This document shows positions 28,437 to 53,522 of a stretch of DNA of 64,000 bases, piece after piece. Position numbers and translations under genes: made by a program. Source of the stretch: a virus. The DNA lies in IMG/VR virus record IMGVR_UViG_3300042882_001046, positions 32,001 through 96,000 of that record. One strand, given 5' to 3'. The notes under the pieces were generated by a model. It saw only the letters and a program-made list of their open reading frames with translations. It searched no databases and was not told the DNA's origin. The stretch's first letter is position 1. Every line of letters begins with the position of its first letter.

Positions 28437-28509
28437 ATGAATATAAATACAACTTCCACTTGGATTTAAACATATTTATACTTACCTTTGTAATGTTCTT
28501 TGAAAATAT

Positions 28510-28932
28510 GGGGATGAAATGGTATCGATTGGCATTGTTGGGGATAAGTGGCACGTAGTCAGAATTCATCTATGACTTTAATCTATGGTGAAGACAATTA
28601 GCTGGCAATACTTTTGCTAAGATGGCGACTTTAGGTTTAACTAGAGAAGCTTCTGTTGTAGCTGCCTAAGAGGTAGTCACAACCGTTACTCCAACCAAGT
28701 TGGTGTAACCTCGGGTCGATTAGGACGTTAACCTAGGAACAGAAGTCCAATATACGGGTCACAGGTCAGAGCTCGTTTAAAATAATTCTGAGACCAGGTT
28801 GTTTGTAAGTTTGGTTCCCACATACATCAAACTTAATATTTCGGAACGTTGAGAAACAACGTTGTACTAAACGTGTAGTCATTTATTGTCAAAGTGAGCA
28901 AGACGCGGGTTCGACTCCCGCCATCTCCACCA
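28510..28932 (+). ncRNA. ssrA: tmRNA
   Basis: Acceptor GGGGATG/CATCTCC-A-CCA with G3.U70, T-arm GCGGGTTCGACTCCCGC, tag ORF ending ...VAA-TAA (28604-28669), TACCTTTG promoter element at 28483. Confidence 0.92.
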
Positions 28933-29411: not shown

Positions 29412-31889
29412 ATGAAGTATTTTCTTTTATTTTTATTGCTACTTCCAACATTAGCAATTGGACAAATAACCGTAAACGGTTTAACAAAATCAAAATCCGA
29501 AAACATATATTTTTCACATATAAGTTTTAAACACTCAGACGGTGCCACATATTCAACAATTTCAAATGAAAACGCGGAATATAAATTAAACCTTAAATCT
29601 GGTTTATATACAATAAAAGCGTCATACATTGGATATAAAGAATTCACAAAAGAATTAAATGTAACGTCCGACTTAACCTTTGATATAATATTTGAAGAAA
29701 CTGAAACTCAGTTGTCAGAAGTTGTTGTAAGGGCGGCTCCACAAAAAGTAACCGAAGCATCAATTGTTAGGTCAATACGAAATAATAATGTCGTATCCGA
29801 TGGACTATCAATTGAATTTATTAAGAAAACTCCTGACAGAAACGTTGGTGACGCACTTAAAAGAGTTGGTGGGGTAACCATCCAAAACGATAAATTTGTA
29901 TTGGTAAGAGGTTTGGCAGACCGTTATAATTCTGCATTATTAAATAAAACCCCACTACCGTCAACTGAACCAGATAAAAGAGCGTTTTCTTTTGACATAA
30001 TCCCAACTTCTTTAATTGACAACATTATTGTTGCTAAATCATCGTCAGCAAATTTGCCTGGTGATTGGAGTGGGGGATTAGTTCAAATAACAACAAAAGA
30101 AGTTTCTGATAAATTTTTTAATCTGTCATTGGGAAGTGGTTGGGGTTCGGTTTCAACCTTTAGAGATTTTAAGTTAGTTCAAGCTACCGATTTCCCTTCC
30201 ACATTCCCTTCAACTTATAGATACCGTATATCATCAAACGGAGATAAAAGGGCGTATACTAAATTAATTGGTAATCCATCAGTTGAACAGACTAAATCAA
30301 CCCCTAATTTAAATGGAGGATTATCATTTGGTCACGCAAATGGAAAATGGAATTCATTATTTAGTTCTACAATTAGAAATTCATATACACTAAACAATAT
30401 TGAAAGAAAAGATTATCAATCATCAACAGAGTTAGCTTATGACTATAAAGATGTTTTATTTACAAAAAGATTTTCAACAAACAGTTTGTTTAATTTAACT
30501 TACTTGGGTGAAAATAGATACAGTTGGAAAACTTTAGTAAACTACCAAATTGAAGATTCATATCTAAACCGTAATGGCGATAATTTTGATAACGTTCAGA
30601 ATGTTTTAACAACGTCTTCGAATCATGTTAACAACGTTGTAATTAGTTCTCAATTTGACGGTAAAATTAAAACATTAAATTTTAATTTAGGATACAATTA
30701 TACGTTTAGAGAACAACCAGATTATAGGATTAATCCAATCACAAAATCATTAGGTGTTAACGAACCTTACGCAACTGCGTGGAGAGACACATATCGTTTT
30801 TGGAGTGTAATGGATGAAAACTCATTTAACGGTAACATAAATAAAGAACTCAATAATATTAAAATTGGTGGTGGGTACATTAAAAGGTTTAGAGGTTTTA
30901 ACGCTAGAATATTTCGTTATCTATCAACAGACATGATGGATGAAATAACAAACAACACCGACAGATATACTGCCGATTTTGATTTGGGGTCTCTTTACTC
31001 GATGTATGAAAACGAATTTGGTAAATGGAAAATAAATGGTGGAATAAGAGGTGAATATAATTTATTTAATGTTCAAACCGCAGATTTTAGTGGTACGGAA
31101 GTGAATGTTAACAGAAAATATTTAGACCTTTTACCTTCGTTAAATCTCTCATACAACGAAGAAAAAACAAAGTATAGATTCTCAGTAAGTAAAACATTGG
31201 CAAGACCTGAATTCAGAGAAGTTGCTAATTTTGCTTATTATGATTTTGTAAGAAATGCTCAAATATTGGGAAATTCAAAGTTAGAAAAATCTGACATATA
31301 TAATTTAGACCTTAAATACGAATGGTACCCAAAGACAGGTGAAAACATTTCGGTTTCTTTATTTGGTAAAAATTTCATTAAACCAATTGAACAAATTGTT
31401 GCAGACGGCTCAGTTCCTTCAAATCTTCTTTTAACTTACACAAACCCTAATTCAGCAATCTTATACGGTATTGAATTTGAAGTTCGTAAAAAGATAAGTG
31501 ATTGGTTTGATGTTTATACAAATGCTTCGGTAATGAATTCAGAAGTAGAAGTTAATGGTATCAAAAGACAATTACAGGGTCAATCAAACTATGTTTTAAA
31601 CGGAGGAGTAAACATACATAAAAAGAAAAACACCCTTAATTTAACTTATAATAGAGTTGGTGATAGAATATCATCTGTAGGGTTTCAGGGGTATCCTGAT
31701 ATATTCGAAAATAGTAGAGATGTATTAGACATTACATTCTTACATAAACTTTCAAAAGGAGAAATAAAATTGGCAATAGGTGATGTATTTGCTCAACCAT
31801 CAATTTATTACCAAAAGGTACAAAACCGAAATCTAATAAAAATAAACAATGAGCAAACAATTTCATTAACATTAAATCTAACATTATGA
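29412..31889 (+). CDS. TonB-dependent outer-membrane receptor
   Basis: Signal peptide, carboxypeptidase-regulatory-like N-domain, plug (DALKRVGGVTI..VRGLADRYN..D.IP) and barrel (LPS.NL.Y, LARP.FRE, GN..L....I.NLDL.YE). Confidence 0.9.
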   Translation: MKYFLLFLLLLPTLAIGQITVNGLTKSKSENIYFSHISFKHSDGATYSTISNENAEYKLNLKSGLYTIKASYIGYKEFTKELNVTSDLTFDIIFEETETQLSEVVVRAAPQKVTEASIVRSIRNNNVVSDGLSIEFIKKTPDRNVGDALKRVGGVTIQNDKFVLVRGLADRYNSALLNKTPLPSTEPDKRAFSFDIIPTSLIDNIIVAKSSSANLPGDWSGGLVQITTKEVSDKFFNLSLGSGWGSVSTFRDFKLVQATDFPSTFPSTYRYRISSNGDKRAYTKLIGNPSVEQTKSTPNLNGGLSFGHANGKWNSLFSSTIRNSYTLNNIERKDYQSSTELAYDYKDVLFTKRFSTNSLFNLTYLGENRYSWKTLVNYQIEDSYLNRNGDNFDNVQNVLTTSSNHVNNVVISSQFDGKIKTLNFNLGYNYTFREQPDYRINPITKSLGVNEPYATAWRDTYRFWSVMDENSFNGNINKELNNIKIGGGYIKRFRGFNARIFRYLSTDMMDEITNNTDRYTADFDLGSLYSMYENEFGKWKINGGIRGEYNLFNVQTADFSGTEVNVNRKYLDLLPSLNLSYNEEKTKYRFSVSKTLARPEFREVANFAYYDFVRNAQILGNSKLEKSDIYNLDLKYEWYPKTGENISVSLFGKNFIKPIEQIVADGSVPSNLLLTYTNPNSAILYGIEFEVRKKISDWFDVYTNASVMNSEVEVNGIKRQLQGQSNYVLNGGVNIHKKKNTLNLTYNRVGDRISSVGFQGYPDIFENSRDVLDITFLHKLSKGEIKLAIGDVFAQPSIYYQKVQNRNLIKINNEQTISLTLNLTL

Positions 31890-33091
31890 AAAAATTATTA
31901 ATTGCTATTTTAGCATTAGGATTATTGAGTTGCGAAAAAGATTTAGGTGGTGGAGAAGATGGACCAATTAACATTCCAACTTCAACAACACTTTCAGGTA
32001 ACATCAATACAACAACAACTTTAACTGCAGATAAAGTTTGGACACTAAAAGGTTATGTATACGTAACCGACGGAGCAAAACTTATTATTCAACCAGGTAC
32101 GACAATCGTTTCTGACATTGCAGAAAAAGGAGCATTATGTATTGAAAGAGGTGCTCAAATTATTGCAGAAGGAACCGTAACAAAACCAATTATTTTTACA
32201 TCTGGTAGAGCGGTTGGAGAAAAATCACCTGGTGATTGGGGTGGTATTGTAATATTGGGTAGAGCAAAAACCAATAGAACATCAGAACCAACAATCGAAG
32301 GTGGTATTGGCAGACCGTTTGGTGGAACAAACGATTTAGATAATAGCGGTATTCTTCGTTATGTAAGAATTGAATACGCTGGTATCGCGGCAATGCCGAA
32401 TTCTGAAATAAATGCATTGACATTAGGTGGTGTTGGTAGTGGAACAATAATTGAATATGTTCAAACAATTTACGCTAACGATGATGCATTTGAATTCTTT
32501 GGAGGAACTGTATCACCAAGAAACTTATACGCGTTTGCGACCGCAGATGATGATTACGATTTTGACTTTGGATATAACGGAACCGTAACAAACAGTGTTT
32601 CAAAAAGAGACCCTCAATTTGTAGACAACGGAGATGCAGGAAATGGTGTAGAATGTGATAACGATGGAACAGGTTCATCATCACAACCTTTTACACATCC
32701 TAAATTAAGTGGTATGATTTTAATTGGACCGTTTGATGTGTCATCACTATCAAACCATAATTTAGGGTTAAGATGGAGACGTGCAACACAGTTTACAATA
32801 ACAAACTCAAAGATATTAGGTTATCAAAAAGGTTCGTTTTCTATTGAAAGTAATGAAACCGCACAATCATATAGAGATGGGGTATCTAAATTTCAAAATA
32901 ATGAGGTTCAATCGTTTGACCCATTATTAAATTTTAAATCAACCTCAACAGTGTTTACCGCATTACAAATGAAAGAAAAATCGTTAAGTGAAGGTAACCT
33001 TGAGAAAAATTATACGAGAGCAGAATTAGAAATACTTTCTAAACCAACATGGACTAATGGTTGGACAAGATTTCCATCAAGAGGAAATTAA
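31886..33091 (+). CDS. TBDR-associated surface lipoprotein (beta-helix-like)
   Basis: Lipobox LLSC; GDWGGIVILG, DNSGILRYVRIEYAG and DDAFEFFGG motifs; ATGA overlap with the TBDR gene. Confidence 0.8.
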   Translation: MKKLLIAILALGLLSCEKDLGGGEDGPINIPTSTTLSGNINTTTTLTADKVWTLKGYVYVTDGAKLIIQPGTTIVSDIAEKGALCIERGAQIIAEGTVTKPIIFTSGRAVGEKSPGDWGGIVILGRAKTNRTSEPTIEGGIGRPFGGTNDLDNSGILRYVRIEYAGIAAMPNSEINALTLGGVGSGTIIEYVQTIYANDDAFEFFGGTVSPRNLYAFATADDDYDFDFGYNGTVTNSVSKRDPQFVDNGDAGNGVECDNDGTGSSSQPFTHPKLSGMILIGPFDVSSLSNHNLGLRWRRATQFTITNSKILGYQKGSFSIESNETAQSYRDGVSKFQNNEVQSFDPLLNFKSTSTVFTALQMKEKSLSEGNLEKNYTRAELEILSKPTWTNGWTRFPSRGN

Positions 33092-39943: not shown

Positions 39944-39969
39944 AAAAAACCCACCATTAGGTGGGTTTT
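39944..39969. terminator. Bidirectional intrinsic terminator
   Basis: AAAACCCACC-atta-GGTGGGTTTT. Confidence 0.8.
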
Positions 39970-39991
39970 GTTTTTAAGGGAAAGTTATAAA

Positions 39992-40183
39992 TTATTTTAC
40001 TTCTTCTACTTTCTCAACATCAGCTTTAACTGAATCAACTGCCACTGCAGATGAATCAACTTTAACTGAATCAACAGCTACTGCAGTTGAATCAACCGCT
40101 TCTGTAGATTTACCAGTCCCGTTTCCGCAAGATGCTAACATTGTTGTTGCTGCAATTGCAAATAGTGCTACGATTTTTTTCAT
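39992..40183 (-). CDS. Small lipoprotein with AVAVDS repeats
   Basis: Lipobox LASC; start moved to 40183 (MKKIVAL). Confidence 0.75.
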   Translation of the reverse strand: MKKIVALFAIAATTMLASCGNGTGKSTEAVDSTAVAVDSVKVDSSAVAVDSVKADVEKVEEVK

Positions 40184-40299
40184 GTTTTTTTGTTTTTTGT
40201 TTGTTATGTATTTTATTAACTTATGAACCATAAATATATGAAGAATTATCTTATGTGTCAATTATTTTAAAAGTTTTTTTTTGTTAAAATTTTGTTATG

Positions 40300-40385
40300 C
40301 GGAGAGTGTTGGGCTCGAACCAACGCGGCTGTTACACCCTACCTGTTTAGCAAACAGGCCCCTTCACCAACTTGGGTAACCCTCC
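40300..40385 (-). tRNA. tRNA-Ser(GCT)
   Basis: Cloverleaf with long variable arm; anticodon arm CCTGT-TTGCTAA-ACAGG. Confidence 0.93.
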
Positions 40386-40724
40386 TTATTGTAATAATTG
40401 TATTAAATAATAAGATAATTTATATCCTGTAAACGCACCAAGAGCTGATGGTAATGGGAAAACAATCATTTTACCTAAATCTGTAACGTATTTTGGTCTG
40501 TTAACAATCTTACCCATATAAAAGTAATATGTTAAGTACCCTAATAACACCGCTAAATCCGTTCTTGTTGCAATGAATACAACAATAGTCGCACCAATAA
40601 AACCAAAAGTAAAATTATCTCTAACTCCTTCCCAAATTTCAAATGTGGTAGCCTCTTTGTACTCTTTAACAATTTTTTTAAACTTTGTTCTGTTTGTCTG
40701 TTTTTTTTTAATTTGTGATTCCAT
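40386..40724 (-). CDS. Small membrane protein inside the tRNA array
   Basis: 112 aa, 3 hydrophobic segments. Confidence 0.6.
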   Translation of the reverse strand: MESQIKKKQTNRTKFKKIVKEYKEATTFEIWEGVRDNFTFGFIGATIVVFIATRTDLAVLLGYLTYYFYMGKIVNRPKYVTDLGKMIVFPLPSALGAFTGYKLSYYLIQLLQ

Positions 40725-40725
40725 G

Positions 40726-40799
40726 TTGGAATAGATGGATTCGAACCATCGACATCTACCGTATCAGGATAGCGCTCTAACCAACTGAGCTATATTCCA
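40726..40799 (-). tRNA. tRNA-Ile(GAT)
   Basis: Canonical cloverleaf; loop CTGATAC. Confidence 0.93.
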
Positions 40800-40804
40800 A
40801 TGTG

Positions 40805-40974
40805 CTGTAAGGGAAGGAGTCGAACCTTCAAGAGGAGATTCAATTGATAACACAACGCTTGCAAGCTGGTGGTCTACCCCATATTATCAATCTATTTCTT
40901 TGTCCCCGCCCCCGAGACAGGAGGGTGCGTATGCCAAGGTCATAACTGAGACAACCTAATTTCGCCACCTTACA
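40805..40974 (-). ncRNA. Giant (170 nt) tRNA-like RNA with GTC (Asp) anticodon-like loop
   Basis: Acceptor TGTAAGG/CCTTACA-G, T arm GAAGG-TTCGACT-CCTTC, stem CCCTC-CTGTCTC-GGGGG, plus structured inserts in the D-loop and variable region. Confidence 0.75.
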
Positions 40975-40979
40975 ATTTG

Positions 40980-41066
40980 CGGAGGAACAGGGATTCGAAC
41001 CCCAGATACCCTTTCGAGTATGCCAGTTTTCAAGACTGGTGCAATCAACCGCTCTGCCATTCCTCC
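40980..41066 (-). tRNA. tRNA-Ser(TGA)
   Basis: Cloverleaf with long variable arm; loop CTTGAAA. Confidence 0.93.
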
Positions 41067-41070
41067 AAAT

Positions 41071-41170
41071 AAAAGTGTTTTGGTCAACCACTCGCTACCC
41101 ACCGCAGTATGACGATTCCCCCTGTGGTCATCGTACTTACGCCTAAGCCTTGTCCGTTGTAAACACTTTT
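41071..41170 (-). ncRNA. Candidate 100-nt structured RNA between tRNA-His and tRNA-Ser
   Basis: Perfect 10-bp closing stem AAAAGTGTTT/AAACACTTTT with a GC-richer folded interior. Confidence 0.5.
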
Positions 41171-41171
41171 G

Positions 41172-41245
41172 GGTGACTAACGGGAATCGAACCCGTGACA
41201 ACTTGAACCACAATCAAGCGCTCTACCTACTGAGCTATAGACACC
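41172..41245 (-). tRNA. tRNA-His(GTG)
   Basis: G-1:C73 extended acceptor; loop TTGTGGT. Confidence 0.9.
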
Positions 41246-41250
41246 ATATG

Positions 41251-41320
41251 TTGCGTGTATGAGGTTCGAACTCACTTGACCTTCCTTATGAGAGAAAGTT
41301 CTTTCCCACTAAGCCACGCA
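41251..41320 (-). pseudogene. Degenerate tRNA with CAT anticodon
   Basis: Intact T arm and CTCATAA loop, but ~3 nt are missing at positions 7-9 and the D arm is short. Confidence 0.6.
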
Positions 41321-41326
41321 GTTTAG

Positions 41327-41398
41327 TGGTTTTATTAGGACTCGAACCCAAACTCCGAAATCCGTAGTTTCGTGTGCTATCCATTACACCATAAAACC
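41327..41398 (-). tRNA. tRNA-Arg(ACG)
   Basis: Cloverleaf; loop CTACGGA. Confidence 0.92.
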
Positions 41399-41402
41399 GT
41401 TG

Positions 41403-41473
41403 TTGTCCCTCAGGGATTCGAACCCCAACTGGATGGACCAAAACCACCTGTACTACCGTTATACTAAAGGACA
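41403..41473 (-). tRNA. tRNA-Gln(TTG)
   Basis: Cloverleaf; loop TTTTGGT. Confidence 0.92.
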
Positions 41474-41481
41474 CTTTAGTG

Positions 41482-41561
41482 TGGGAGTGGAGGGATTCGA
41501 ACCCCCAATGTCGACGACCACAGATTTACAGTCTGCTAAGCAACCGTTGCTCAACACTCCC
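41482..41561 (-). tRNA. tRNA-Tyr(GTA)
   Basis: Long variable arm; loop CTGTAAA. Confidence 0.92.
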
Positions 41562-41562
41562 A

Positions 41563-41792
41563 AGTTAGGAAAGGAGAAGATGGTCGAGTGGACATCTCCT
41601 TTTACGATTGGCATTACTCAGGTGTATTTCTCCCAACTCCGATGATACCGACCAAAATACACTCTCATGTCATAGGTACCACCATTCCCCAATCAACCTA
41701 TAAAACGATAATAGAATGTCCCAGCCGTCTCCTTCTCTTATCTAACATACACTAACAGCTAAATACGGCTTGACTGATTATACTGTATGTTT
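41563..41792 (-). ncRNA. Candidate ~230-nt rod-like structured RNA between tRNA-Trp and tRNA-Tyr
   Basis: Nested stems GGACAT/ATGTCC, TTTTAT/GTAAAA, GATTGG/CCAATC and GTGTATTT/AAATACAC, plus a 5' hairpin AACATACA/TGTATGTT. Confidence 0.55.
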
Positions 41793-41794
41793 TG

Positions 41795-41868
41795 CACGGG
41801 TGGAGAGGTTCGAACTCCCGACAACTGGTTTTGGAGACCAGTACTCTACCAAACTGAGCTACACCCGC
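41795..41868 (-). tRNA. tRNA-Trp(CCA)
   Basis: Cloverleaf; loop CTCCAAA. Confidence 0.93.
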
Positions 41869-41873
41869 TTATA

Positions 41874-42116
41874 TTACCTATACTTCCTGATAATCTTCAT
41901 TATCTCTCCGATATCTGTAAGTTCCATCTTTTGTCCGACACGGATTGGATAGAATGCCACGGTAAATCCGTGGTTTCCACAAAAACGTTCGGTTACTCTT
42001 TTTCCATTAACTTTTTCAAGATAAATCCATGGAATGTTACCTGCGAATTCACATTTGATTCCCAGTTTGTCCATTCTTCTTCTGAAATCGTTTAATACTC
42101 TTGTGTCTGTTTCCAT
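41874..42116 (-). CDS. Hypothetical protein inside the tRNA array
   Basis: 80-aa ORF filling the gap between tRNA-Cys and tRNA-Trp. Confidence 0.65.
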   Translation of the reverse strand: METDTRVLNDFRRRMDKLGIKCEFAGNIPWIYLEKVNGKRVTERFCGNHGFTVAFYPIRVGQKMELTDIGEIMKIIRKYR

Positions 42117-42130
42117 AAGTTTATTTTTTG

Positions 42131-42202
42131 AGGTCGAACCCAGAATCGAACTGGGGTAATTAGTTTTGCAGACTAACGCCTAAGCCGCTCGGCCACCCGA
42201 CC
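42131..42202 (-). tRNA. tRNA-Cys(GCA)
   Basis: Cloverleaf, U73; loop CTGCAAA. Confidence 0.93.
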
Positions 42203-42208
42203 ATTGTT

Positions 42209-42442
42209 TTATTTAACCATATCAAAGTTAATCATATTCTCTGACATTAATTCACGAAGTTCATTTCTTATTTCCTGATATGCGTCATACTTGTCCTGTG
42301 GTAAATCATCGGAAGCATATTTAGTTTTCGCTCTCAATGATTGGTCCAAATCCCAAAGTATTGACCACATCTTCATTCCTTTAGTTGCCAAGTCGAAATC
42401 TTGTTGGTCCTCAGGTAAATTAAATTCTAAAACAGCTTTCAT
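42209..42442 (-). CDS. Hypothetical protein (MKAVLEFNLPED...)
   Basis: Start moved to 42442; small-protein type common in phages. Confidence 0.65.
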   Translation of the reverse strand: MKAVLEFNLPEDQQDFDLATKGMKMWSILWDLDQSLRAKTKYASDDLPQDKYDAYQEIRNELRELMSENMINFDMVK

Positions 42443-42620
42443 TTTTTTTCTCTTTATATTTTTTACATCTCTTTTTTGGTACTTCAACGTAATATGAACC
42501 CATAAACGATGAGAATACACCAACGTAGTTGGACCCAACCTCTTTTACATCATGGAGCACTGAACCCTCAAAAAGGTTGAAGAAGATGTCAGTACAGTCT
42601 TTTTTTGTTACAACTTTCAT
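42420..42620 (-). CDS. Hypothetical protein
   Basis: Start moved to 42620; TATATTTG element just upstream. Confidence 0.5.
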   Translation of the reverse strand: MKVVTKKDCTDIFFNLFEGSVLHDVKEVGSNYVGVFSSFMGSYYVEVPKKRCKKYKEKKNESCFRI

Positions 42621-42658
42621 ATTACAAATATACACAATTTTATTTAATTTTTCTAATG

Positions 42659-42732
42659 TGACCCCGCCGAGATTCGAACTCGGGACTCCTTCATTAAAAG
42701 TGAAGTGCTCTAGCCAACTGAGCTACGAAGTC
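42659..42732 (-). tRNA. tRNA-Lys(TTT)
   Basis: Cloverleaf; loop CTTTTAA. Confidence 0.93.
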
Positions 42733-42738
42733 TTATTG

Positions 42739-42811
42739 TGGTAACGGTCAGAATCGAACTGACGACACCTTGGTCTTCAGCCAAGTGCTCTACCAACTGA
42801 GCTACATCACC
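42739..42811 (-). tRNA. tRNA-Phe(GAA)
   Basis: Cloverleaf; loop CTGAAGA. Confidence 0.93.
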
Positions 42812-42816
42812 ATTTG

Positions 42817-42889
42817 TAGTCCCTGTAGGAATCGAACCTACGACATCTTGCATGTAAAACAAGCGCTCTCCCAACTGAGCTAAAGGACT
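42817..42889 (-). tRNA. tRNA-Val(TAC)
   Basis: Cloverleaf; loop TTTACAT. Confidence 0.93.
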
Positions 42890-42894
42890 GTTTG

Positions 42895-42968
42895 TACTCC
42901 GTACGGGGCTCGAACCCGTAATCTTCACCGTGAAAGGGTGACGACTTAACCAATTTGTCCAACGGAGC
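42895..42968 (-). tRNA. tRNA-Glu(TTC)
   Basis: Cloverleaf; loop CTTTCAC. Confidence 0.93.
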
Positions 42969-43022
42969 AATTATTCAACAAAAATACGACCAATAAATCA
43001 AAGAACCAAAAAACATCAAAAT

Positions 43023-43055
43023 AAAAAACCCCGAACCTTTTTACGAGTTCGGGGT
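43023..43055 (-). terminator. Intrinsic terminator (putative attenuator) upstream of tRNA array 1
   Basis: Minus strand ACCCCGAAC-tcgtaaaaag-GTTCGGGGT-TTTTT. Confidence 0.85.
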
Positions 43056-43088: not shown

Positions 43089-43187
43089 TTATCCTATTTT
43101 GACATCCGAACTACATAATAGCATACGCTCATACCAACAAATCGATTGTTGTGTACTAAAGACCATATGTTTAAATGTAGTTTTCAT
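43089..43187 (-). CDS. Putative leader peptide 1, 32 aa: MKTTFKHMVFSTQQSICWYERMLLCSSDVKIG
   Basis: ATG-to-TAA ORF between a consensus promoter and a terminator; its composition mirrors the downstream tRNAs. Confidence 0.75.
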   Translation of the reverse strand: MKTTFKHMVFSTQQSICWYERMLLCSSDVKIG

Positions 43188-43205: not shown

Positions 43206-43236
43206 CAAAGATACAAAAAAATCTTTGGGTGTCAAA
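43206..43236 (-). promoter_or_regulatory. Bacteroidota sigma70-type promoter for leader 1 / tRNA array 1
   Basis: Minus strand TTTG-N19-TATCTTTG. Confidence 0.8.
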
Positions 43237-44522: not shown

Positions 44523-44535
44523 AATTTAAATCTTG

Positions 44536-44616
44536 TACCCCAAGAGAGACTCGAACTCTCACGACCGAAGTCATTGGTTCCTAAGACCAACGCGGCTACC
44601 GTTACGCCATCGGGGT
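44536..44616 (-). tRNA. tRNA-Leu(TAG)
   Basis: Long variable arm; loop CTTAGGA. Confidence 0.92.
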
Positions 44617-44619
44617 GTG

Positions 44620-44711
44620 TCATTATCGCTTCAGCCACATCGGGAAAGGCGCCTCTCCCGCGTTGTTTAAGTGTGTAACTTGCGCCGTATCTCACTGAGG
44701 TACGATAATGA
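44620..44711 (-). ncRNA. Candidate 92-nt structured RNA between tRNA-Arg and tRNA-Leu
   Basis: 9-bp closing stem TCATTATCG/CGATAATGA; internal hairpin CGGGAGAG-GCGC-CTTTCCCG. Confidence 0.5.
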
Positions 44712-44714
44712 TTG

Positions 44715-44788
<74 letters not shown>

Positions 44789-44792
44789 ATTG

Positions 44793-44878
44793 TACCGAGG
44801 GAGGGACTCGAACCCTCACGGCCGTTTACTGACCAAGGGATTTTAAGTCCCTCGTGGCTACCATTACACCACCTCGGC
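44793..44878 (-). tRNA. tRNA-Leu(TAA)
   Basis: Long variable arm; loop CTTAAAA. Confidence 0.93.
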
Positions 44879-44886
44879 ATTGTCTT

Positions 44887-44894
44887 ACAAATAT
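44887..44894 (-). promoter_or_regulatory. -7 promoter element for the Leu/Arg/Leu tRNA trio
   Basis: Minus strand TATATTTG 8 nt upstream of tRNA-Leu(TAA), downstream of a terminator. Confidence 0.65.
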
Positions 44895-44916
44895 AACCTT
44901 TATGGAATCATAAATC

Positions 44917-44951
44917 AAAAAAAACCCCAAACTTTTTTTTTAGTTTGGGGT
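44917..44951 (-). terminator. Intrinsic terminator ending the leader-2 operon
   Basis: Minus strand ACCCCAAAC-loop-GTTTGGGGT-TTTTTTT. Confidence 0.8.
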
Positions 44952-44977
44952 CCTATTATATAAAGTTATTACCTTTT

Positions 44978-45709
44978 TTATTGAGCATCAAACTCTTCTT
45001 CCCATAACGTATCAGAAGAATTTTCTTCTGTATTATAAGTGTGATTTAATTCAATTGTCATGTCATTGAAATTAAATACGAACTCTCCGTCTGACCCTTC
45101 ATTAATTTCCCAACCACCATAATGACTTTCAAGTTGATTATAACACCAATCTTCAATTGTTGACGGAACTGAATCACCATTTTCTTCAAATGAACTTTCA
45201 ATATAACCAGAATCCCCCGAACCATTATATCTTAGAGTTAATATTCCATCTTGTGGAATTTCTAAATCAGATAGAACCCCATCTTTTTCCCATTCTTCAA
45301 AAATTTCTTGACCTTCTTCTTCTGACCATTCAGTCCCACTAGCGTCTCCTCTATCATACCAAGACCAATAATGGTTAAATGAAATGTCTTTGTTTGCAGA
45401 ATTAATACTAATCTCAAACTTTTGCCATGACATCGCATCAATATCTGGTGTCTCACTACTATATAATTCTTGGTCAGACGCATACTTCGTAATTTTTTGA
45501 AGTATCGGTATCAACCCTGACGGAACGTCCGCTCTCCAGTTATTGGAGAAATGTGTCATTTGATTCCAATCTATATTATTATAGTTAAGTGTATCACCAT
45601 AATCATCCATCTCGAATTCAAACTCACCGACTTCCATTCCGAGAGAGCTCAAATAATTACAAACTCTTCTCAGGTATTGTTTTTCTTCTGTTGTTAAAAG
45701 TTTTTCCAT
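44978..45709 (-). CDS. Acidic protein with C-terminal DUF6878-like domain
   Basis: Y.GSGDSG.IE and YGGWEINEG..G.F.F motifs. Confidence 0.6.
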   Translation of the reverse strand: MEKLLTTEEKQYLRRVCNYLSSLGMEVGEFEFEMDDYGDTLNYNNIDWNQMTHFSNNWRADVPSGLIPILQKITKYASDQELYSSETPDIDAMSWQKFEISINSANKDISFNHYWSWYDRGDASGTEWSEEEGQEIFEEWEKDGVLSDLEIPQDGILTLRYNGSGDSGYIESSFEENGDSVPSTIEDWCYNQLESHYGGWEINEGSDGEFVFNFNDMTIELNHTYNTEENSSDTLWEEEFDAQ

Positions 45710-45720
45710 ATAAATAAATA

Positions 45721-46074
45721 TCAGTCTTCAAACTCTAATTTCATTGTTTTTAACATCCATTGGGGTCTTTGATTTGACGAGATGTTACTAATCCACTCTT
45801 TGGCTGAAGGTATGTAATTATTACAATCTTCTTTTACGTGTTGTTCTCCAACATATCGGGTATAAACTGTTTTTCCGTCTGAGTTTAAGAACTCAGTTCC
45901 AAATCTTTTTTCCATTTCAAAAATTCCTTCACTATGATGTCTAAACATTCTATGAAGAGAATCTCCAAACCAAGATTTGGTTTCATCTAACCATTCATGT
46001 AAATGAATGTAATCCTCAGGTTTTCCTCCAAACTTTTTGGCGGATGATTTTGCATGTAAATTTGGATGTGCCAT
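45721..46074 (-). CDS. DUF6915-like His-rich protein
   Basis: HP..HA.SSA.KFGG..EDY...H.W.D, HR..RHH.EG and EQHV.ED motifs. Confidence 0.7.
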   Translation of the reverse strand: MAHPNLHAKSSAKKFGGKPEDYIHLHEWLDETKSWFGDSLHRMFRHHSEGIFEMEKRFGTEFLNSDGKTVYTRYVGEQHVKEDCNNYIPSAKEWISNISSNQRPQWMLKTMKLEFED

Positions 46075-46076
46075 GA

Positions 46077-46310
46077 TTATTTAATTTGTGAGTTGTTTCT
46101 TCTTGCTTCCTCAGCTTCTTTGTAAACCCTAACCCATGTTAAAAATACATCAATAGGTGCTAAAATCCAACACATAATAATTAACGCCATACTCTCAAGA
46201 CCTGGAGATATTCCAAGACCACCTGACATAACATCTCTGTTCCATTTTCTAATTGACATGATTACGCAGTAAATGAAACAAACAACGTAATACGACCAAA
46301 ATAATTGCAT
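46077..46310 (-). CDS. Small membrane protein
   Basis: Start moved to 46310 (MQLFWSY); two TM helices. Confidence 0.6.
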   Translation of the reverse strand: MQLFWSYYVVCFIYCVIMSIRKWNRDVMSGGLGISPGLESMALIIMCWILAPIDVFLTWVRVYKEAEEARRNNSQIK

Positions 46311-46325
46311 AAATAAAAGTTTTAG

Positions 46326-46398
46326 TGGAGAATGAGGGAATCGAACCCACGACAACTTGAATGCAAATCAAGCGCTCTACCAACTGAGCTAATTCCCC
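46326..46398 (-). tRNA. tRNA-Ala(TGC)
   Basis: G3.U70; loop TTTGCAT. Confidence 0.93.
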
Positions 46399-46404
46399 TG
46401 TTTG

Positions 46405-46477
46405 AGCCTCCTGTCGGAATCGAACCAACGACCTACTGATTACAAATCAGTTGCTCTACCTGCTGAGCTAAGGAGGC
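46405..46477 (-). tRNA. tRNA-Thr(TGT)
   Basis: Cloverleaf; loop TTTGTAA. Confidence 0.93.
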
Positions 46478-46527
46478 ATTTGTGGGTGTATGCTCATCAC
46501 ATACTCATGGGTTCCCACAACCCGTTG

Positions 46528-46600
46528 AGCGGAAGACCAGGCTCGAACTGGCCACCCCCGACTTGGAAGGACGGTGCTCTACCAAATGAGCTACTTCCGC
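46528..46600 (-). tRNA. tRNA-Gly(TCC)
   Basis: Cloverleaf; loop CTTCCAA. Confidence 0.93.
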
Positions 46601-46605
46601 AATTT

Positions 46606-46681
46606 TGGCGGTCCCGACGGGATTCGAACCCGTATCTCGCACCGTGACAGGGTGGAATTGTAACCATTCAACCACGGGACC
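46606..46681 (-). tRNA. tRNA-Asp(GTC), CCA encoded
   Basis: Cloverleaf; loop CTGTCAC; ends in GCCA. Confidence 0.92.
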
Positions 46682-46709
46682 GTGTGTGGGGAGTTTCACC
46701 CCAAACTTT

Positions 46710-47201
46710 TTAATTTGTTAAGATGTGTTGATGTTCTCCGATTACTCGTTTTAAACTACTAACATATCTCTTATCAGACGCATATACCCTTCCGAGTAGT
46801 GCAAGATACTGATTTTTTGTCAAATCGTCTTTACCTTTTAACATATAATCTTGCCATAAAAAGTAATCATATACGCTAAGGTTCCAATCTGTATATTTTG
46901 AGTATCCGCTCTGAGTTTTACCAACTGAAGACGTTTCTCTTTTTGTTGGAACTCTCATTCCAAACAGATTGTTTGCCGTTTTGAACAATTTTGATGTAAA
47001 TGCTCCTGACTCTAACACAGCTTGTGCAAACACAATATCAGGAAATTTTATACCAAACTTAATTATCTGCTCGTACAATTCTTCTTTTGTCAACCTATCA
47101 TCTTGTGTCTGATAAGTTGTTTGTACTTGCTTCTCTTGTGCTTTTGTTGTCATTGTTCCTAACAATAACAACACAGTCAATAAGAATGTTTTTAACTTCA
47201 T
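46710..47201 (-). CDS. Secreted glucosaminidase-domain peptidoglycan hydrolase
   Basis: Signal peptide; AQAVLESG..S.L....NNLFGM and Y..D..Y motifs. Confidence 0.8.
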   Translation of the reverse strand: MKLKTFLLTVLLLLGTMTTKAQEKQVQTTYQTQDDRLTKEELYEQIIKFGIKFPDIVFAQAVLESGAFTSKLFKTANNLFGMRVPTKRETSSVGKTQSGYSKYTDWNLSVYDYFLWQDYMLKGKDDLTKNQYLALLGRVYASDKRYVSSLKRVIGEHQHILTN

Positions 47202-47281
47202 TTCTTTCTTTTTGTCTGTTTATGCTTCAGGATTACTCCATCCACGATACCACAACATTGGAAATTTTCCACCCACCTCAG

Positions 47282-47353
47282 CTGCTCCACCTGGGCTCGA
47301 ACCAGGATAAAAGGATTAACAGTCCTCCGTAATAACCATTATACGATAGAGCA
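47282..47353 (-). tRNA. tRNA-Asn(GTT)
   Basis: Cloverleaf; loop CTGTTAA. Confidence 0.9.
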
Positions 47354-47390
47354 AAATTATAATCAAATTTTCCAACAAAGGAAACTTTTG

Positions 47391-47464
47391 TCGGGATGGC
47401 TGGATTCGAACCAACGGCCTCCACGTCCCAAACGTGGCGCGATACCTGACTACGCTACATCCCG
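47391..47464 (-). tRNA. tRNA-Pro(TGG)
   Basis: C1-G72; loop TTTGGGA. Confidence 0.93.
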
Positions 47465-47469
47465 TACAT

Positions 47470-47500
47470 AAAAAAACCCTGAAGTATTAGTTCAGGGTTT
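47470..47500 (-). terminator. Intrinsic terminator (putative attenuator) upstream of tRNA array 2
   Basis: Minus strand AAACCCTGAA-ctaatac-TTCAGGGTTT-TTTT, 5 nt before tRNA-Pro. Confidence 0.85.
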
Positions 47501-47522
47501 AGATAATTGGCTATAATATTGT

Positions 47523-47621
47523 TTACCAACCACTCGCTTCTGAACTTACGCAAATAGTGCCCGCATCCCCATTAGGAGTTGTCGGTGTGTCTAAATTCGT
47601 ATTTGTGTTCATAGTTTTCAT
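47523..47621 (-). CDS. Putative leader peptide 2, 32 aa: MKTMNTNTNLDTPTTPNGDAGTICVSSEASGW
   Basis: ATG-to-TAA ORF upstream of the terminator; its composition mirrors the downstream tRNAs. Confidence 0.75.
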   Translation of the reverse strand: MKTMNTNTNLDTPTTPNGDAGTICVSSEASGW

Positions 47622-47625
47622 AGTG

Positions 47626-47657
47626 CAATATTACAATAAATATATTTAAAAACCAAA
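47626..47657 (-). promoter_or_regulatory. Putative promoter for leader 2
   Basis: Minus strand TTTG-N20-TAATATTG (one mismatch to TAnnTTTG); a TATTTAT motif overlaps the spacer. Confidence 0.5.
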
Positions 47658-50260: not shown

Positions 50261-51928
50261 ATGAGGGTATTAGGGTTTTCAGTAGGCCACGATAAAGGAG
50301 CGGTTATTATTGAAGATGGGAAAGTTATTGTGGGTATAACACAAGAAAGAATTTCTCGTGTTAAACATGATGGAGCACATCAAGGAGGACTTATACCTTT
50401 TGAGTCAATAAATTATTGTCTAAACTCAATTGGTATTACTTATAAAGAAATTGACCTTTTTGTTTATAGTACAACGGAGCTTGAGGATAAAACAGCTGCG
50501 GATTTTTTCAGAAAATATAATGACATTAGTTACGATAGATTATTTTTTATACCTCACCATTTAGCACACGCTTATTCAACATTCTTTAGTTCAGGATTTG
50601 ATGACGCTGCGGTTATTGTTGCCGACGCGTCAGGTAGTATATTAAACTTCAAAAATAAATTACATTTATGGTATGAAGTTGACCGTACGGGATTGAACCC
50701 TGATGAAGATTGGACAGAAGGAATTTCAATATATCATTTTAAGAAAAATGAATATAATGAAGTTTATAAAAAATGGATAAAATATCCTGTACCTATTGAT
50801 ACTAATGAAGGTGTGTCGGTTGGTACCGTATATTCACAAGGTTCTTTACAGTTAATCTATGAACCAAATGAACATACTTGGCCTGCAGGTAAATTAATGG
50901 GACTGGCATCTTATGCGGATGATGAAATTGTAAAAGAAGCCCCTGAATATGTTCAAGATTTAGGTGATGATATCTATATTCCCAATAACGCAATATACCC
51001 AAAAGTTACTTGGGGGTCTGATTTCTTTTCAAGAGCATGTGTTGCGGGAATATATCAAAGAGAACAAGAAAGAGCATCCTTAATTTTAGCAAAAATCGCA
51101 AAAGATAAAACAGGTTCAGAAAATGTATGTGTTGCGGGTGGTTCTTTTTTGAATTGTAATTCTAATGAAAGAATTTTAAATTCAGGTTTATATGAAAATT
51201 GTTATTTCATTCCGCCAAGCGATGATAGTGGAATTCCATTAGGTTGTGCTTGGTTTGCATATCAAAAATTAACCGATATTTCGGAAGTAGAACAATTAAG
51301 CCCTTATCTTGGTAAATCATACAGTAAAAACGATGTTGTTGAAGCACTTAACGAGTATCCAGGTTTAAAGTATACTGAATACGATAATTTTGATTTACTA
51401 ATCAATGAAATTAGTTATTGGTTAACACAAAATAGAGTTATTGGGTGGTTTCAAGGAGGTTCGGAGATTGGTCCAAGAGCGTTAGGTAATCGTTCTATAT
51501 TGGCATCTCCAATTAAGTCATGGATGACTGGTCATATAAACTCAGACATAAAGAAAAGAGAGTGGTATAGACCTTTTGCACCTGCAGTATTATTTGAGCA
51601 TCAATCAGAAGTTTTTGAATCTGATGTATATTCACCTTACATGTTGTTGACAACAACAGTTAAAGAAGATTGGATAAATAAAATACCAGCCGTAGTTCAT
51701 ATTGATAATTCTGCAAGACATCAATCGGTTACCGAAAAAAATAACCCTAAATTCTATTCTTTGATTAAAAAATTCTACGAAAAAACTAATGTTCCTGTTT
51801 TATTGAACACAAGTTTTAACGGACCAAAAGAACCTATTGTAGAAACACCTAAAGAAGCAATTAATACATTCTTAGAAAACAATTTAGACTACTTGGTCAT
51901 CAATAATTTTATTATCTCCAAAAATTAA
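50261..51928 (+). CDS. Carbamoyltransferase (NodU/CmcH family) 1
   Basis: GHD..A, ERISRVKH, HHLAHA, GKLMGLA, GG.FLNC..N, E.GPRALG.RS, K.RE.YRPFAP and NTSFN motifs. Confidence 0.9.
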   Translation: MRVLGFSVGHDKGAVIIEDGKVIVGITQERISRVKHDGAHQGGLIPFESINYCLNSIGITYKEIDLFVYSTTELEDKTAADFFRKYNDISYDRLFFIPHHLAHAYSTFFSSGFDDAAVIVADASGSILNFKNKLHLWYEVDRTGLNPDEDWTEGISIYHFKKNEYNEVYKKWIKYPVPIDTNEGVSVGTVYSQGSLQLIYEPNEHTWPAGKLMGLASYADDEIVKEAPEYVQDLGDDIYIPNNAIYPKVTWGSDFFSRACVAGIYQREQERASLILAKIAKDKTGSENVCVAGGSFLNCNSNERILNSGLYENCYFIPPSDDSGIPLGCAWFAYQKLTDISEVEQLSPYLGKSYSKNDVVEALNEYPGLKYTEYDNFDLLINEISYWLTQNRVIGWFQGGSEIGPRALGNRSILASPIKSWMTGHINSDIKKREWYRPFAPAVLFEHQSEVFESDVYSPYMLLTTTVKEDWINKIPAVVHIDNSARHQSVTEKNNPKFYSLIKKFYEKTNVPVLLNTSFNGPKEPIVETPKEAINTFLENNLDYLVINNFIISKN

Positions 51929-51929
51929 T

Positions 51930-53522
51930 ATGAGTTCAATTTATTCTTTTTTTGCGGGTTCACATAGTGCAACATCATCATTAATCATTGATGGTGAAAT
52001 AAAATATGTTATTGAGGAAGAGAGATTAAGTAGAATCAAAGCAGGAGATAAATACGAATCATTTCCAAATTTATCGTCATCCAAAATTGTTGAATTATCT
52101 GGTTTACAAATAAAAGATGCGGACTATAGAATAATGGTAGAGCCAGTACCTGATTTGTATGCAGATGAACTTACAAATGGTAAATATGAAAGAGTTAGTC
52201 ACCACGACTCACATTGTTACGGTTCATATTTTACAAGTGGAATGGACGGAAAAGTTATGACAATATCCTATGATGGTGGAGGTGATAAGTCAGTTATGAA
52301 AATTTACCTATGTGAAAATGGTAAAATGACATTACTTAAAAGTTTGGATTATTCAACCTTTGGAAGTTTATCACATCTTTGGGGATTTTCTACTACAGGT
52401 ATTTTAGGGGTTGGTGAGAACGGTGCATCAATTTGGAAAATTTGTAAAGATGAAGGTAAATTAATGGGTATGGCGGCGGACGGATATTACGATGAAAACA
52501 TTATTAATATGTTAAAGTCCGTTATAAAATATAAAGATTTAAAATTTAGTCCATCAACAACAGGAGAAAGAACTAAATTTTTAATGGACTCATTACGATT
52601 ACAAGGTGCCTTTGATACCAAAGAACAACGAGAAGTTTTTTCATATAATTTACAACATTATACAAACAAAATGTTTGTTGAGTTTTTAACTGACCTAAAC
52701 AAACTTTACCCTGAGTATAGAAAATTTGCGTTCTCGGGTGGACTTTTTGCAAACGTAAAGTTGAACCAAAAGATAAATGAATTAGATTTTGTTGATGAGA
52801 TTTTTGTTTATCCCCCAATGGGTGATGAAGGACTTCCATTAGGTGCCTGTATTAAAAAAGCTGTGGAGTTGGGTGAAATAACAAAACCAATTAAGTTAAA
52901 AAATGTGTTTTTTGGTATTGAATACACAAATGAAGAAGTGGACAACATATCAAAAGATTATGACTTCAATAAGTCACTATATGTACCTGAAGAAATTGCA
53001 TCAGACATCGATAATGGTGGTATTATAGGATGGTTTCAGGATAGATTTGAACATGGTCCAAGAGCATTAGGCGCACGAAGTATATTGGTTAAACCAACCG
53101 AAATTGGTACGCACCGAGTTCTAAATGAAAGACTTAAGAGGTATGAAATAATGCCATTTGCACCAATTGTAATGGAAGAATATTTTGACGAAATTTTTTA
53201 TCCTTCCAAATCAAAATACTCTTCTGAATTTATGACAATTTGTTATTCCACAAGAGAATCTTGGATAAACAAAATTCCCGCAGTTATTCAAAAATCCGAT
53301 AAAACGGCAAGACCTCAGATTGTTGTAAAAAATAAAAACAAAAAGTTTTGGGAAATATTAAACGCGTATTATAAAATTTCAGGAATCCCTGTTTTATTGA
53401 ATACGTCATTTAATTCTCACAACGAACCAATTATAGATTCTCCACAACAAGCGTTTGATACGTTAAAAAAAGGAATCATAGATAAATTAATTATAGGAGA
53501 TTATGTTTATTATCGTAAATAA
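51930..53522 (+). CDS. Carbamoyltransferase (NodU/CmcH family) 2
   Basis: EERLSR.K, HHDSH, EGKLMGMA, GG.FANV..N, GPRALGARS, PFAP, TAR.Q and NTSFN motifs. Confidence 0.9.
   Translation: MSSIYSFFAGSHSATSSLIIDGEIKYVIEEERLSRIKAGDKYESFPNLSSSKIVELSGLQIKDADYRIMVEPVPDLYADELTNGKYERVSHHDSHCYGSYFTSGMDGKVMTISYDGGGDKSVMKIYLCENGKMTLLKSLDYSTFGSLSHLWGFSTTGILGVGENGASIWKICKDEGKLMGMAADGYYDENIINMLKSVIKYKDLKFSPSTTGERTKFLMDSLRLQGAFDTKEQREVFSYNLQHYTNKMFVEFLTDLNKLYPEYRKFAFSGGLFANVKLNQKINELDFVDEIFVYPPMGDEGLPLGACIKKAVELGEITKPIKLKNVFFGIEYTNEEVDNISKDYDFNKSLYVPEEIASDIDNGGIIGWFQDRFEHGPRALGARSILVKPTEIGTHRVLNERLKRYEIMPFAPIVMEEYFDEIFYPSKSKYSSEFMTICYSTRESWINKIPAVIQKSDKTARPQIVVKNKNKKFWEILNAYYKISGIPVLLNTSFNSHNEPIIDSPQQAFDTLKKGIIDKLIIGDYVYYRK

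Follow-up and report, generated by a model that had tools for sequence, protein, structure and literature searches.

In the attenuators of amino-acid operons (trpL, hisL, leuL and pheL), a short open reading frame (ORF) rich in regulatory codons precedes an intrinsic terminator, the antiterminator uses the 5′ arm of that terminator, and the stop codon is placed such that a ribosome that has finished translation blocks the antiterminator. The classical leaders contain runs of regulatory codons, and the multivalent leaders of thr and ilvGMEDA monitor several amino acids simultaneously. In the pheM leader of pheST and in the T-box riboswitches, the state of the tRNA pool sets the expression of genes of the translation apparatus; pheM controls a synthetase via a run of Phe codons, whereas T-boxes bind uncharged tRNA directly, with no ribosome involved. 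Neither of them is known to control tRNA genes. Genes for tRNAs are common in phages, and it is debated whether they compensate for codon usage, replace host tRNAs that have been degraded, or evade anticodon nucleases. We know of essentially no account of how phage tRNA genes are regulated.

The DNA analyzed here, referred to as the window, is a stretch of 64,000 nucleotides (positions 32,001 to 96,000 of the IMG/VR virus record IMGVR_UViG_3300042882_001046). On its minus strand, a 32-codon ORF, leader 2, precedes a block of tRNA genes. We consider that leader 2 probably gates a phage tRNA transcription unit as a ribosome-mediated attenuator of transcription, of the same type as the trp and his leaders. 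The original prediction of a regulatory leader attenuator matched to the downstream tRNAs is supported by the conservation of the module, the tracking of tRNA content by leader codons, the covariation of the pairing segments, the predicted folds of nascent transcripts, and the 5-nt gap between the terminator and the first tRNA. Leader 2 shares with the amino-acid operon attenuators the codon-rich short ORF with its intrinsic terminator, the use of the terminator 5′ arm by the antiterminator and the position of the stop codon, and it shares with the thr and ilvGMEDA leaders the representation of several amino acids. In contrast to the amino-acid operon attenuators, the genes behind the phage leaders are tRNA genes rather than genes for biosynthetic enzymes, up to 16 tRNA species are represented, each by as few as one codon and often by just one, the match extends to synonymous codons and anticodons, and phage-borne paralogues are present, one per tRNA block. 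Unlike T-boxes, the phage leaders would depend on a ribosome, and unlike both pheM and T-boxes, they would control tRNA genes. An Rfam search with both leaders at E values up to 1 returned no leader family (Trp, His, Leu, Thr, Phe or others) and no T-box; its only matches, outside the leaders, were to tRNAs, together with chance matches below the threshold. A literature search, which was not exhaustive, found no published account of such control logic for tRNA genes. As far as we found, tRNA genes as the target of this known type of attenuation are therefore new and unpublished.

The virus record is 118,268 bp long, with a G+C content of 33%, and includes the window as a part. Its genes include those for major capsid, portal and terminase proteins of the T4 type and for a TonB-receptor-like outer-membrane protein with a domain build known mainly from Bacteroidota. 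Its intergenic regions contain TTTG-N19-TAnnTTTG sites, which correspond to the housekeeping promoter consensus of Bacteroidota. The virus is a T4-like phage, and Bacteroidota are its likely host group. Megablast and tblastn searches against 50,697 GenBank phage records gave matches at the level of tRNAs only, suggesting a lineage without a cultured relative; in these searches, no relative of the neighboring 243-aa protein was found among the 50,697 records. The relatives described below come from freshwater lake metagenomes, and as their contigs of 122–130 kb are rated ~40% complete, the genome is probably near 300 kb.

Between 48840 and 40299, the minus strand carries 23 tRNA genes with interspersed small ORFs. 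Terminators on this strand split the region into three units, namely Pro-Asn-Asp-Gly-Thr-Ala behind leader 2 (unit 2), Leu-Arg-Leu behind a plain terminator at 44954–44921, and Glu-Val-Phe-Lys-Cys-Trp-Tyr-Gln-Arg-His-Ser-Ile-Ser behind leader 1 (unit 1), a paralogue of leader 2. Besides the terminator of leader 2, the only terminator-like sites on the minus strand with a stem of at least 10 pairs are the one at 44954–44921 and those at 43055–43028 and 39969–39946.

The elements that the original prediction had described for leader 2 were found as claimed. The ORF lies at 47523–47621 on the minus strand, comprises 32 codons plus the stop codon, and encodes MKTMNTNTNLDTPTTPNGDAGTICVSSEASGW. Of the 20 codons 3–22, 18 specify Thr (7), Asn (4), Pro (2), Asp (2), Gly (2) or Ala (1), and the remaining two residues are M4 and L10. 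The sensing part, taken as codons 2–25, contains codons for Thr, Asn, Pro, Asp, Gly and Ala; relatives retain the ORF, in which the sensing part shows synonymous changes and the tail varies. The predicted terminator, AAACCCTGAA-N7-TTCAGGGTTT at 47500–47474 followed by TTTT, is the intrinsic terminator of the leader (47470–47500, minus strand), with a 10-bp stem (AAACCCUGAA/UUCAGGGUUU), a 7-nt loop and a U-run; the stop codon of the ORF is located 22 nt ahead of the stem. The complementarity of AGUUCAG (47546–47540, minus strand, inside codons 26–28) to CUGAACU (47495–47489, minus strand) in the terminator 5′ arm was likewise confirmed. These two stretches are referred to as segment 2, the 5′ half of the antiterminator, and segment 3, respectively.

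The downstream genes follow in the predicted order, Pro, Asn, Asp, Gly, Thr and Ala, but the array is not pure tRNA, as it also contains protein ORFs. The unit that leader 2 would gate (44921–47464, minus strand) begins 5 nt past the U-run with tRNA-Pro(tgg) (47464–47390) and continues on the same strand with tRNA-Asn(gtt) (47353–47281), a glucosaminidase-like ORF of 163 aa (47201–46710), tRNA-Asp(gtc) (46681–46606), tRNA-Gly(tcc) (46600–46527), tRNA-Thr(tgt) (46477–46404) and tRNA-Ala(tgc) (46398–46325). Three ORFs lie between tRNA-Ala and the plain terminator at 44954–44921, with which the unit ends, and no further terminator-like site was found inside unit 2 on the minus strand. On the other side, a 260-aa ORF ends 45 nt upstream of leader 2, with no terminator in between.

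We propose that leader 2 senses the decoding speed of the codons that are read by its own downstream tRNAs. Transcription would start just upstream of the ATG, with read-in from the upstream gene as a further possibility, and a ribosome would translate the 32-codon ORF. Slow decoding of the Thr, Asn, Pro, Asp, Gly or Ala codons among codons 3–22 would cause the ribosome to lag, upon which AGUUCAG would pair with CUGAACU, the stem would close around an internal hairpin, and the terminator would be blocked, allowing RNA polymerase to proceed into tRNA-Pro, Asn, Asp, Gly, Thr and Ala. Upon fast decoding, the ribosome at codons 26–33 would cover segment 2 or separate segments 2 and 3, and with segment 2 unavailable, the terminator would form and transcription would stop at ~47470. 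The net effect would be negative feedback on the supply of each tRNA block. In the same manner, leader 1 would act as a "roll-call" leader for 13 tRNAs, in which the transit time sums all of the species. Translation of the ORF, the coupling of ribosome and polymerase, the promoters, and the direction and magnitude of the response are inferred from the sequence.

The original prediction held that two composition matches with the same geometry are hard to attribute to chance. Leader composition was compared with tRNA identity by scoring codons 2–25 of each leader at the anticodon level, with the contig's own codon usage as the null. Leader 2 covers 6 of the 6 tRNAs in its unit, with 18 of 24 codons matching (P = 1.6e-5, 500,000 random 24-codon strings). 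Leader 1 covers 13 of 13 tRNAs, or 12 of 13 under strict wobble rules, and the full coverage was reached by 3e-5 of the random strings. Among the 317 small ORFs of the contig (25–45 codons, six frames), each leader is the sole top scorer for its own set, the runners-up reaching 14 codons and 11 tRNAs. The swapped sets match poorly: leader 1 covers 1/6 of set 2, and leader 2 covers 5/13 of set 1. These results indicate that the match is far beyond chance for both leaders, in agreement with the prediction.

Leader 1 is built like leader 2, also as predicted. Its ORF (43089–43187, minus strand; MKTTFKHMVFSTQQSICWYERMLLCSSDVKIG) has the MKT start, 32 codons, and SSD at codons 26–28. Its segment 2, AGUUCGG at 43112–43106, pairs with CCGAACU, and its terminator (43023–43055, minus strand) consists of ACCCCGAACU-N8-GGUUCGGGGU and a U-run. 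The unit behind leader 1 (39946–42968, minus strand) ends at the terminator at 39969–39946 and contains, in order, tRNA Glu, Val, Phe, Lys, Cys, Trp, Tyr, Gln, Arg(acg), a tRNA(CAU)-like element, His, Ser(tga), Ile and Ser(gct), with small ORFs interspersed among the tRNAs. Each of the 13 tRNAs is represented by one or two codons in the leader.

The predicted RNA switch was compared across 49 distinct modules. The GUUCRG:CYGAAC helix, formed by segment 2 with the terminator 5′ arm, is paired in 99.7% of the cells, and the terminator stem is 96.3% paired. The one variable pair of the helix is AU in 30 modules, GC in 18 and GU in 1, with no mismatch, and this level of covariation was reached in 0 of 500 shuffles. 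The same 5′-arm base often only wobble-pairs with the 3′ arm (UG in 22), indicating that segment 2 is not a mere copy of the 3′ arm. The change from AU to GC is seen within the leader 1 orthologues, with a GU intermediate in locus L030, and a second time between the L102/L104 modules, whose terminators are otherwise nearly identical. The covariation, seen in a short antiterminator core of 6–7 bp with a single varying pair, probably reflects 2–3 independent events.

The predicted folds are consistent with this pairing. In transcripts cut before the 3′ arm, the minimum-energy fold has segments 2 and 3 paired, with energies of −15.8 kcal/mol for leader 2 and −14.1 kcal/mol for leader 1, where the antiterminator helix extends to 12 pairs with one bulge. 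The full transcripts of both leaders are predicted to fold into the terminator. In the two leaders of the window, the matched codons end ~4 codons before segment 2; in all classes of the family, segment 2 starts at codons 25–30, and the stop codon falls between 2 codons upstream and 10 codons downstream of the segment 2 start. The placement of the stop codon and the sensing codons fits the classical attenuator in its geometry, as distinct from its kinetics. The structural elements of a leader-peptide attenuator are all present, namely the codon-enriched ORF, the terminator, the mutually exclusive antiterminator and the placement of the stop codon. A candidate anti-antiterminator, in which UGAAC (codons 4–5) pairs with segment 2 in the leader 2 fold, was rejected; it has no equivalent in leader 1 of the window.

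A candidate promoter of leader 2 is located at 47626–47657 on the minus strand. It consists of the motif ATATTTAT (47643–47636), 14 nt upstream of the ATG, and the Bacteroidota-type −7 box TAATATTG (47633–47626), which has one mismatch to the type and a TTTG ~20 nt upstream. The box ends 4 nt ahead of the ATG, and a leaderless start of the transcript is plausible but unproven. The motif ATATTTAT is enriched upstream of genes in the contig (15 of 29 copies), also precedes the tmRNA gene, and may be a phage-specific promoter element. The candidate promoter stretch is conserved even in relatives with a different upstream gene. For leader 1, the putative promoter (43206–43236, minus strand), TTTG-N19-TATCTTTG, matches the Bacteroidota consensus. 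The boxes of the Bacteroidota type were identified by eye and with a regular expression; a scan for sigma-70 promoters gave 38 sites, compared to 39 expected.

A second promoter-like site (42979–43010, minus strand) lies between the leader 1 terminator and tRNA-Glu. Its −7 box, TATTTTTG at 42986–42979, is conserved in all of the relatives, with variable inner bases. A conserved, promoter-like TAnnTTTG box is located between the terminator and the first tRNA in most modules of the family, including those of leader 1, of a third leader found in relatives (leader 3, described below), and of leader 2 in some lineages. Because a promoter-like box follows the terminator in these modules, the attenuator would supply only part of the tRNA transcription there, contributing a regulated portion in addition to that from a dedicated promoter, perhaps at another stage of infection. 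The Leu(taa)-Arg(tct)-Leu(tag) unit (44535–44954, minus strand) has no leader in the genome of the window and is preceded by the plain terminator and a promoter-like site at 44919–44888.

The boxes bear on the strongest alternative, in which the leader senses the codons of its unit and the output is not simple readthrough into the tRNAs. Instead, the leader might interfere with or occlude the tRNA promoter, affect how the tRNA precursor is processed or how stable it is, or gate transcripts from the upstream operon; this alternative is also favored by the lack of a terminator between the upstream gene and the leader. However, no promoter fits the 5-nt gap between the U-run and tRNA-Pro in leader 2 of the window, so that tRNA-Pro would need readthrough, which is the only evident route to this gene in that module. 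Furthermore, the terminator/antiterminator geometry and the covariation are those of a readthrough switch, and the codon set always matches the downstream unit up to the next terminator. We therefore regard an output other than readthrough as unlikely.

Contigs from four metatranscriptomes, which can neither show transcript ends nor exclude DNA carry-over, extend across both terminators. Contig X16 (1497 nt, depth 39, from a relative ~97% alike, with DNA carry-over possible) spans leader 2 and its terminator and extends into the unit through tRNA-Pro, tRNA-Asn, the ORF and part of tRNA-Asp. Contig X17, for which DNA carry-over is equally possible, spans the leader 1 terminator. Other contigs from these RNA libraries break near 47501–47508 or at 47544.

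About 90 related metagenomic loci were gathered with two neighboring proteins and a DNA pattern, the neighboring protein being 48–100% identical. The terminator motif with a preceding small ORF occurs 106 times in them, and a tRNA lies within 140 nt in 101 of the 106; the other five modules lie at contig ends. In the window's 118-kb contig, the terminator motif has only three copies, each shortly before a tRNA cluster. All related loci of sufficient length retain the module, while their flanking genes have diverged or been replaced.

This conservation weighs against the view that the hairpin is a constitutive, leaky terminator of the upstream structural gene and that the small ORF has no consequence. 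Such a terminator would suit the 260-aa ORF, which ends 45 nt upstream of leader 2 and is followed by no other terminator. However, relatives with another gene in the upstream position (L005) retain the module, both the ORF and its codon set show conservation and covariation with the tRNAs, and complementarity of segment 2 to the 5′ arm is present in 49 of the 49 distinct modules. A constitutive terminator is thus very unlikely to account for the locus.

The codon content of the leaders follows the tRNA content of the units. In 38 distinct complete modules, the leader contains a cognate codon for 312 of the 323 tRNAs of its own unit; for shuffled pairings of leaders and units, the mean was 65% and the maximum 77%, and the observed value was reached in 0 of 2000 shuffles. 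As the sequences are related, such family counts overstate independence, and the individual events of gain and loss are the stronger evidence. Single leaders of ~25 codons cover 14, 15 or 16 different tRNAs, and coverage is full in individual loci (16/16 and 15/15).

Several such events were found. In the L102/L104 lineage, tRNA-Pro is gone from unit 2 and the Pro codons are gone from leader 2, and a new module with 3 Pro codons lies directly before Pro-Ile-Cys-Trp-Tyr-Gln-Arg-Met-Ser; the old leader 1 of this lineage has no Trp, Tyr or Lys codons. Between L064 and L043, the replacements R>H, V>I, S>C and K>Q match the loss of tRNA Arg, Val, Ser and Lys. In L030, tRNA-Ala is lost, and the leader reads GDGGT in place of GDAGT. 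In relatives, leader 3, MRTTLLHTLLLDRQGLLRRLMP, which is rich in Leu and Arg (TTA x5, CTT x2, CTA or CTG, and AGA x4), is located ahead of Leu(taa)-Arg(tct)-Leu(tag). In lineages without leader 3, leader 2 itself contains 4–5 Leu codons and AGA, and in L063, the one among them that was scanned, no strong terminator lies ahead of Leu-Arg-Leu. A terminator before tRNA-Ile(tat) in L063 (16640–16669), considered as a leader module, was rejected, as it has no leader and ends a protein gene.

The match also extends to the choice among synonymous codons. CGT, CGC or CGA for Arg occurs only in leaders before Arg(acg), and AGA occurs before Arg(tct); the contig's own Arg usage is 760 for AGA versus 100 for CGT. 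Similarly, Ser is encoded by AGT or AGC with Ser(gct) and by TCA or TCG with Ser(tga), a matching that the two modules of L102 show separately. The converse holds less strictly: codons are kept despite the absence of the tRNA gene for Ala in L031 and L005 and for Lys and Val in L045, and Thr codons at positions 3–4, as well as Lys, Asn or Met codons, are present whatever the tRNA set.

The peptide tail after segment 2 varies freely (ICVSSEASGW, MFVRSESIIW and IRMSSDIIFE), and in L065 and L069, a one-base deletion shifts the frame and truncates the tail, with the segment 2 nucleotides kept. In the MKNLNT class, the amino acid is changed at 18 of the 23 sensing codons, and the coverage of the unit's tRNAs is kept. 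These results suggest that the codon content and the RNA structure, rather than the peptide, are the selected features, since the peptide drifts while the coverage and segment 2 persist. By codon position, the variable sites number 4, 3 and 11 in the MKTM class, the only class with a clear signal in the third-position test; the classes other than MKTM showed no clear bias. In our view, the pattern reflects selection for codon content and not for the peptide, which is distinct from a proof of translation.

The same observations count against the possibility that the ORFs are independent genes for small proteins whose match to the neighboring tRNAs arose incidentally, for instance through local codon bias or common ancestry. 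Each ORF does have a promoter-like site, an ATG and a terminator, and in most lineages the tRNAs have a promoter-like box of their own. However, the peptide drifts and its tail is dispensable, yet the codon coverage and the segment 2 nucleotides are kept; the match operates at the level of synonymous codons and follows the relocation of tRNAs; the chance probabilities are ~1e-5 each; and such genes would not account for the covariation of segments 2 and 3. We consider this origin of the match highly improbable. The opposite polarity, in which efficient translation of the leader promotes tRNA transcription in a feed-forward manner, for example by a ribosome melting the terminator, is scarcely credible, as the stop codon 22 nt before the stem leaves the terminator out of reach of a terminating ribosome, and a ribosome that had read through would cover, rather than free, the conserved pairing segment.

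If leader 2 and its paralogues are attenuators, phages would monitor tRNA supply species by species, ribosome-mediated feedback would extend beyond amino-acid and synthetase genes to tRNA genes, and the use of single codons would let one leader integrate a dozen or more tRNA species. A broader reading, which we put forward tentatively and hold to be possible but rather doubtful, is that unrelated phage lineages share a general, modular "roll-call" feedback, in which a tRNA block would be switched on when any species limits the ribosome, and the leaders would serve as a sensor of host translation and a trigger of counter-defense. The triggers might then include early infection, degradation of host tRNAs, or attack by host anticodon nucleases. 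In practical terms, the leaders would provide a rule by which the tRNA transcription units of phage genomes can be delimited, and they could be used as compact building blocks of synthetic sensors for tRNA availability.

The Caulobacter phage phiCbK (JX100813) has a similar arrangement, which makes the idea directly testable in a tractable system. This phage is unrelated to that of the window in sequence and host, being an alphaproteobacterial siphovirus as opposed to a T4-like phage probably of Bacteroidota, and the two share the same logic of mini-ORF, terminator and tRNAs, as judged from composition. The phiCbK cases support the generality of codon-matched leaders before tRNAs. In one of them, gp083 (S11 L6 P4 K3 of 45 residues) and an annotated terminator precede Pro Pro Lys Lys Leu Leu Leu Ser Ser. 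In the other, an unannotated 32-codon ORF, MSKTYRQFVRQIQVVRNIRAG..., and a terminator precede Phe Val Ile Ile Val Gln Gln Gly.

In the related metagenomic loci, a third paralogous leader, MRTTLLHTLLLDRQGLLRRLMP (L032:3174-3305, with equivalents in L005, L006, L014, L031, L033, L072, L077, and L082-L093), contains eight Leu and four Arg codons. Its stop codon is followed immediately 3' by GUUCAG, then by a terminator and tRNA Leu(taa)-Arg(tct)-Leu(tag). The third leader is absent at 44955-44980 of the window, where a promoter-like site and a plain terminator are all that the genome carries. A 32-codon ORF without annotation, MSKTYRQFVRQIQVVRNIRAGRSRMADEGFRD, was also found in phiCbK, a cultured Caulobacter phage (L115:1840-1940; JX100813, ~51339-51439). 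An annotated terminator (51465-51502) lies directly 3' of this ORF, followed by tRNA Phe-Val-Ile-Ile-Val-Gln-Gln-Gly.

For leader 2, the ORF ahead of the tRNA Pro-Asn-Asp-Gly-Thr-Ala array, the UGAAC at codons 4-5 (47609-47613, minus strand) pairs with the antiterminator 5' half, segment 2 (47545-47541), in the full-length fold. This predicted pairing suggests that UGAAC could be an anti-antiterminator (segment 1). UGAAC is also seen in leaders starting with ATGAAC (the MNTTM class) or carrying AUGAAC or UUGAAC at codons 3-5; the window's leader 1, the paralogous ORF, is without such a UGAAC.

Behind leader 1, a tRNA-like element (41251-41320, minus strand) is located between tRNA-Arg(acg) and tRNA-His. 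Its anticodon loop carries CAU, its D-arm is defective, and its Rfam tRNA score of 24.7 bits is below the 29-bit threshold. The corresponding slot in the relatives is occupied by tRNA-Met(cat). The element may serve as the match for the two ATG codons inside leader 1; alternatively, it may be a gene undergoing decay.

The ATATTTAT motif is common to the regions upstream of leader 2, many genes, and a phage-encoded tmRNA with the tag GNTFAKMATLGLTREASVVAA (28510-28932, plus strand), where it lies 31 nt upstream (28472-28479). Because 15 of its 29 copies precede the start of a gene on their own strand by at most 60 nt, ATATTTAT is a candidate phage promoter element. A second conserved motif, GTTCTTTGA(A/C)AT(A/G)TTGG (42990-43006, minus strand), is present in the window and its relatives in the gap from the terminator to the first tRNA. 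Its position relative to the Bacteroidota-type -7 box, TAnnTTTG, differs between classes: some have the motif immediately upstream of this box, others downstream of it, ~10 nt before the tRNA. The motif may represent an additional -7 box of variant sequence, which would place the tRNA promoters in tandem. In one lineage, L006, a G+C-rich insertion of ~80 nt, possibly structured, separates the tRNA promoter box from tRNA-Glu (L006:11062-11198), and the gap is 137 nt, compared to 58 nt elsewhere.

Among the other protein genes of the window, an 825-aa protein (29412-31889, plus strand) with CarboxypepD_reg, Plug, and outer-membrane beta-barrel domains has, as judged from these domain assignments, the build of a TonB-dependent receptor, which hints at a Bacteroidota host. 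A gene of this type is unusual phage cargo. The plus strand also encodes a ClpB/Hsp104-like double AAA+ ATPase of 671 aa (23858-25873) and two adjoining large ORFs of 555 and 530 aa (50261-53522), the second of which is a carbamoyltransferase by Pfam.
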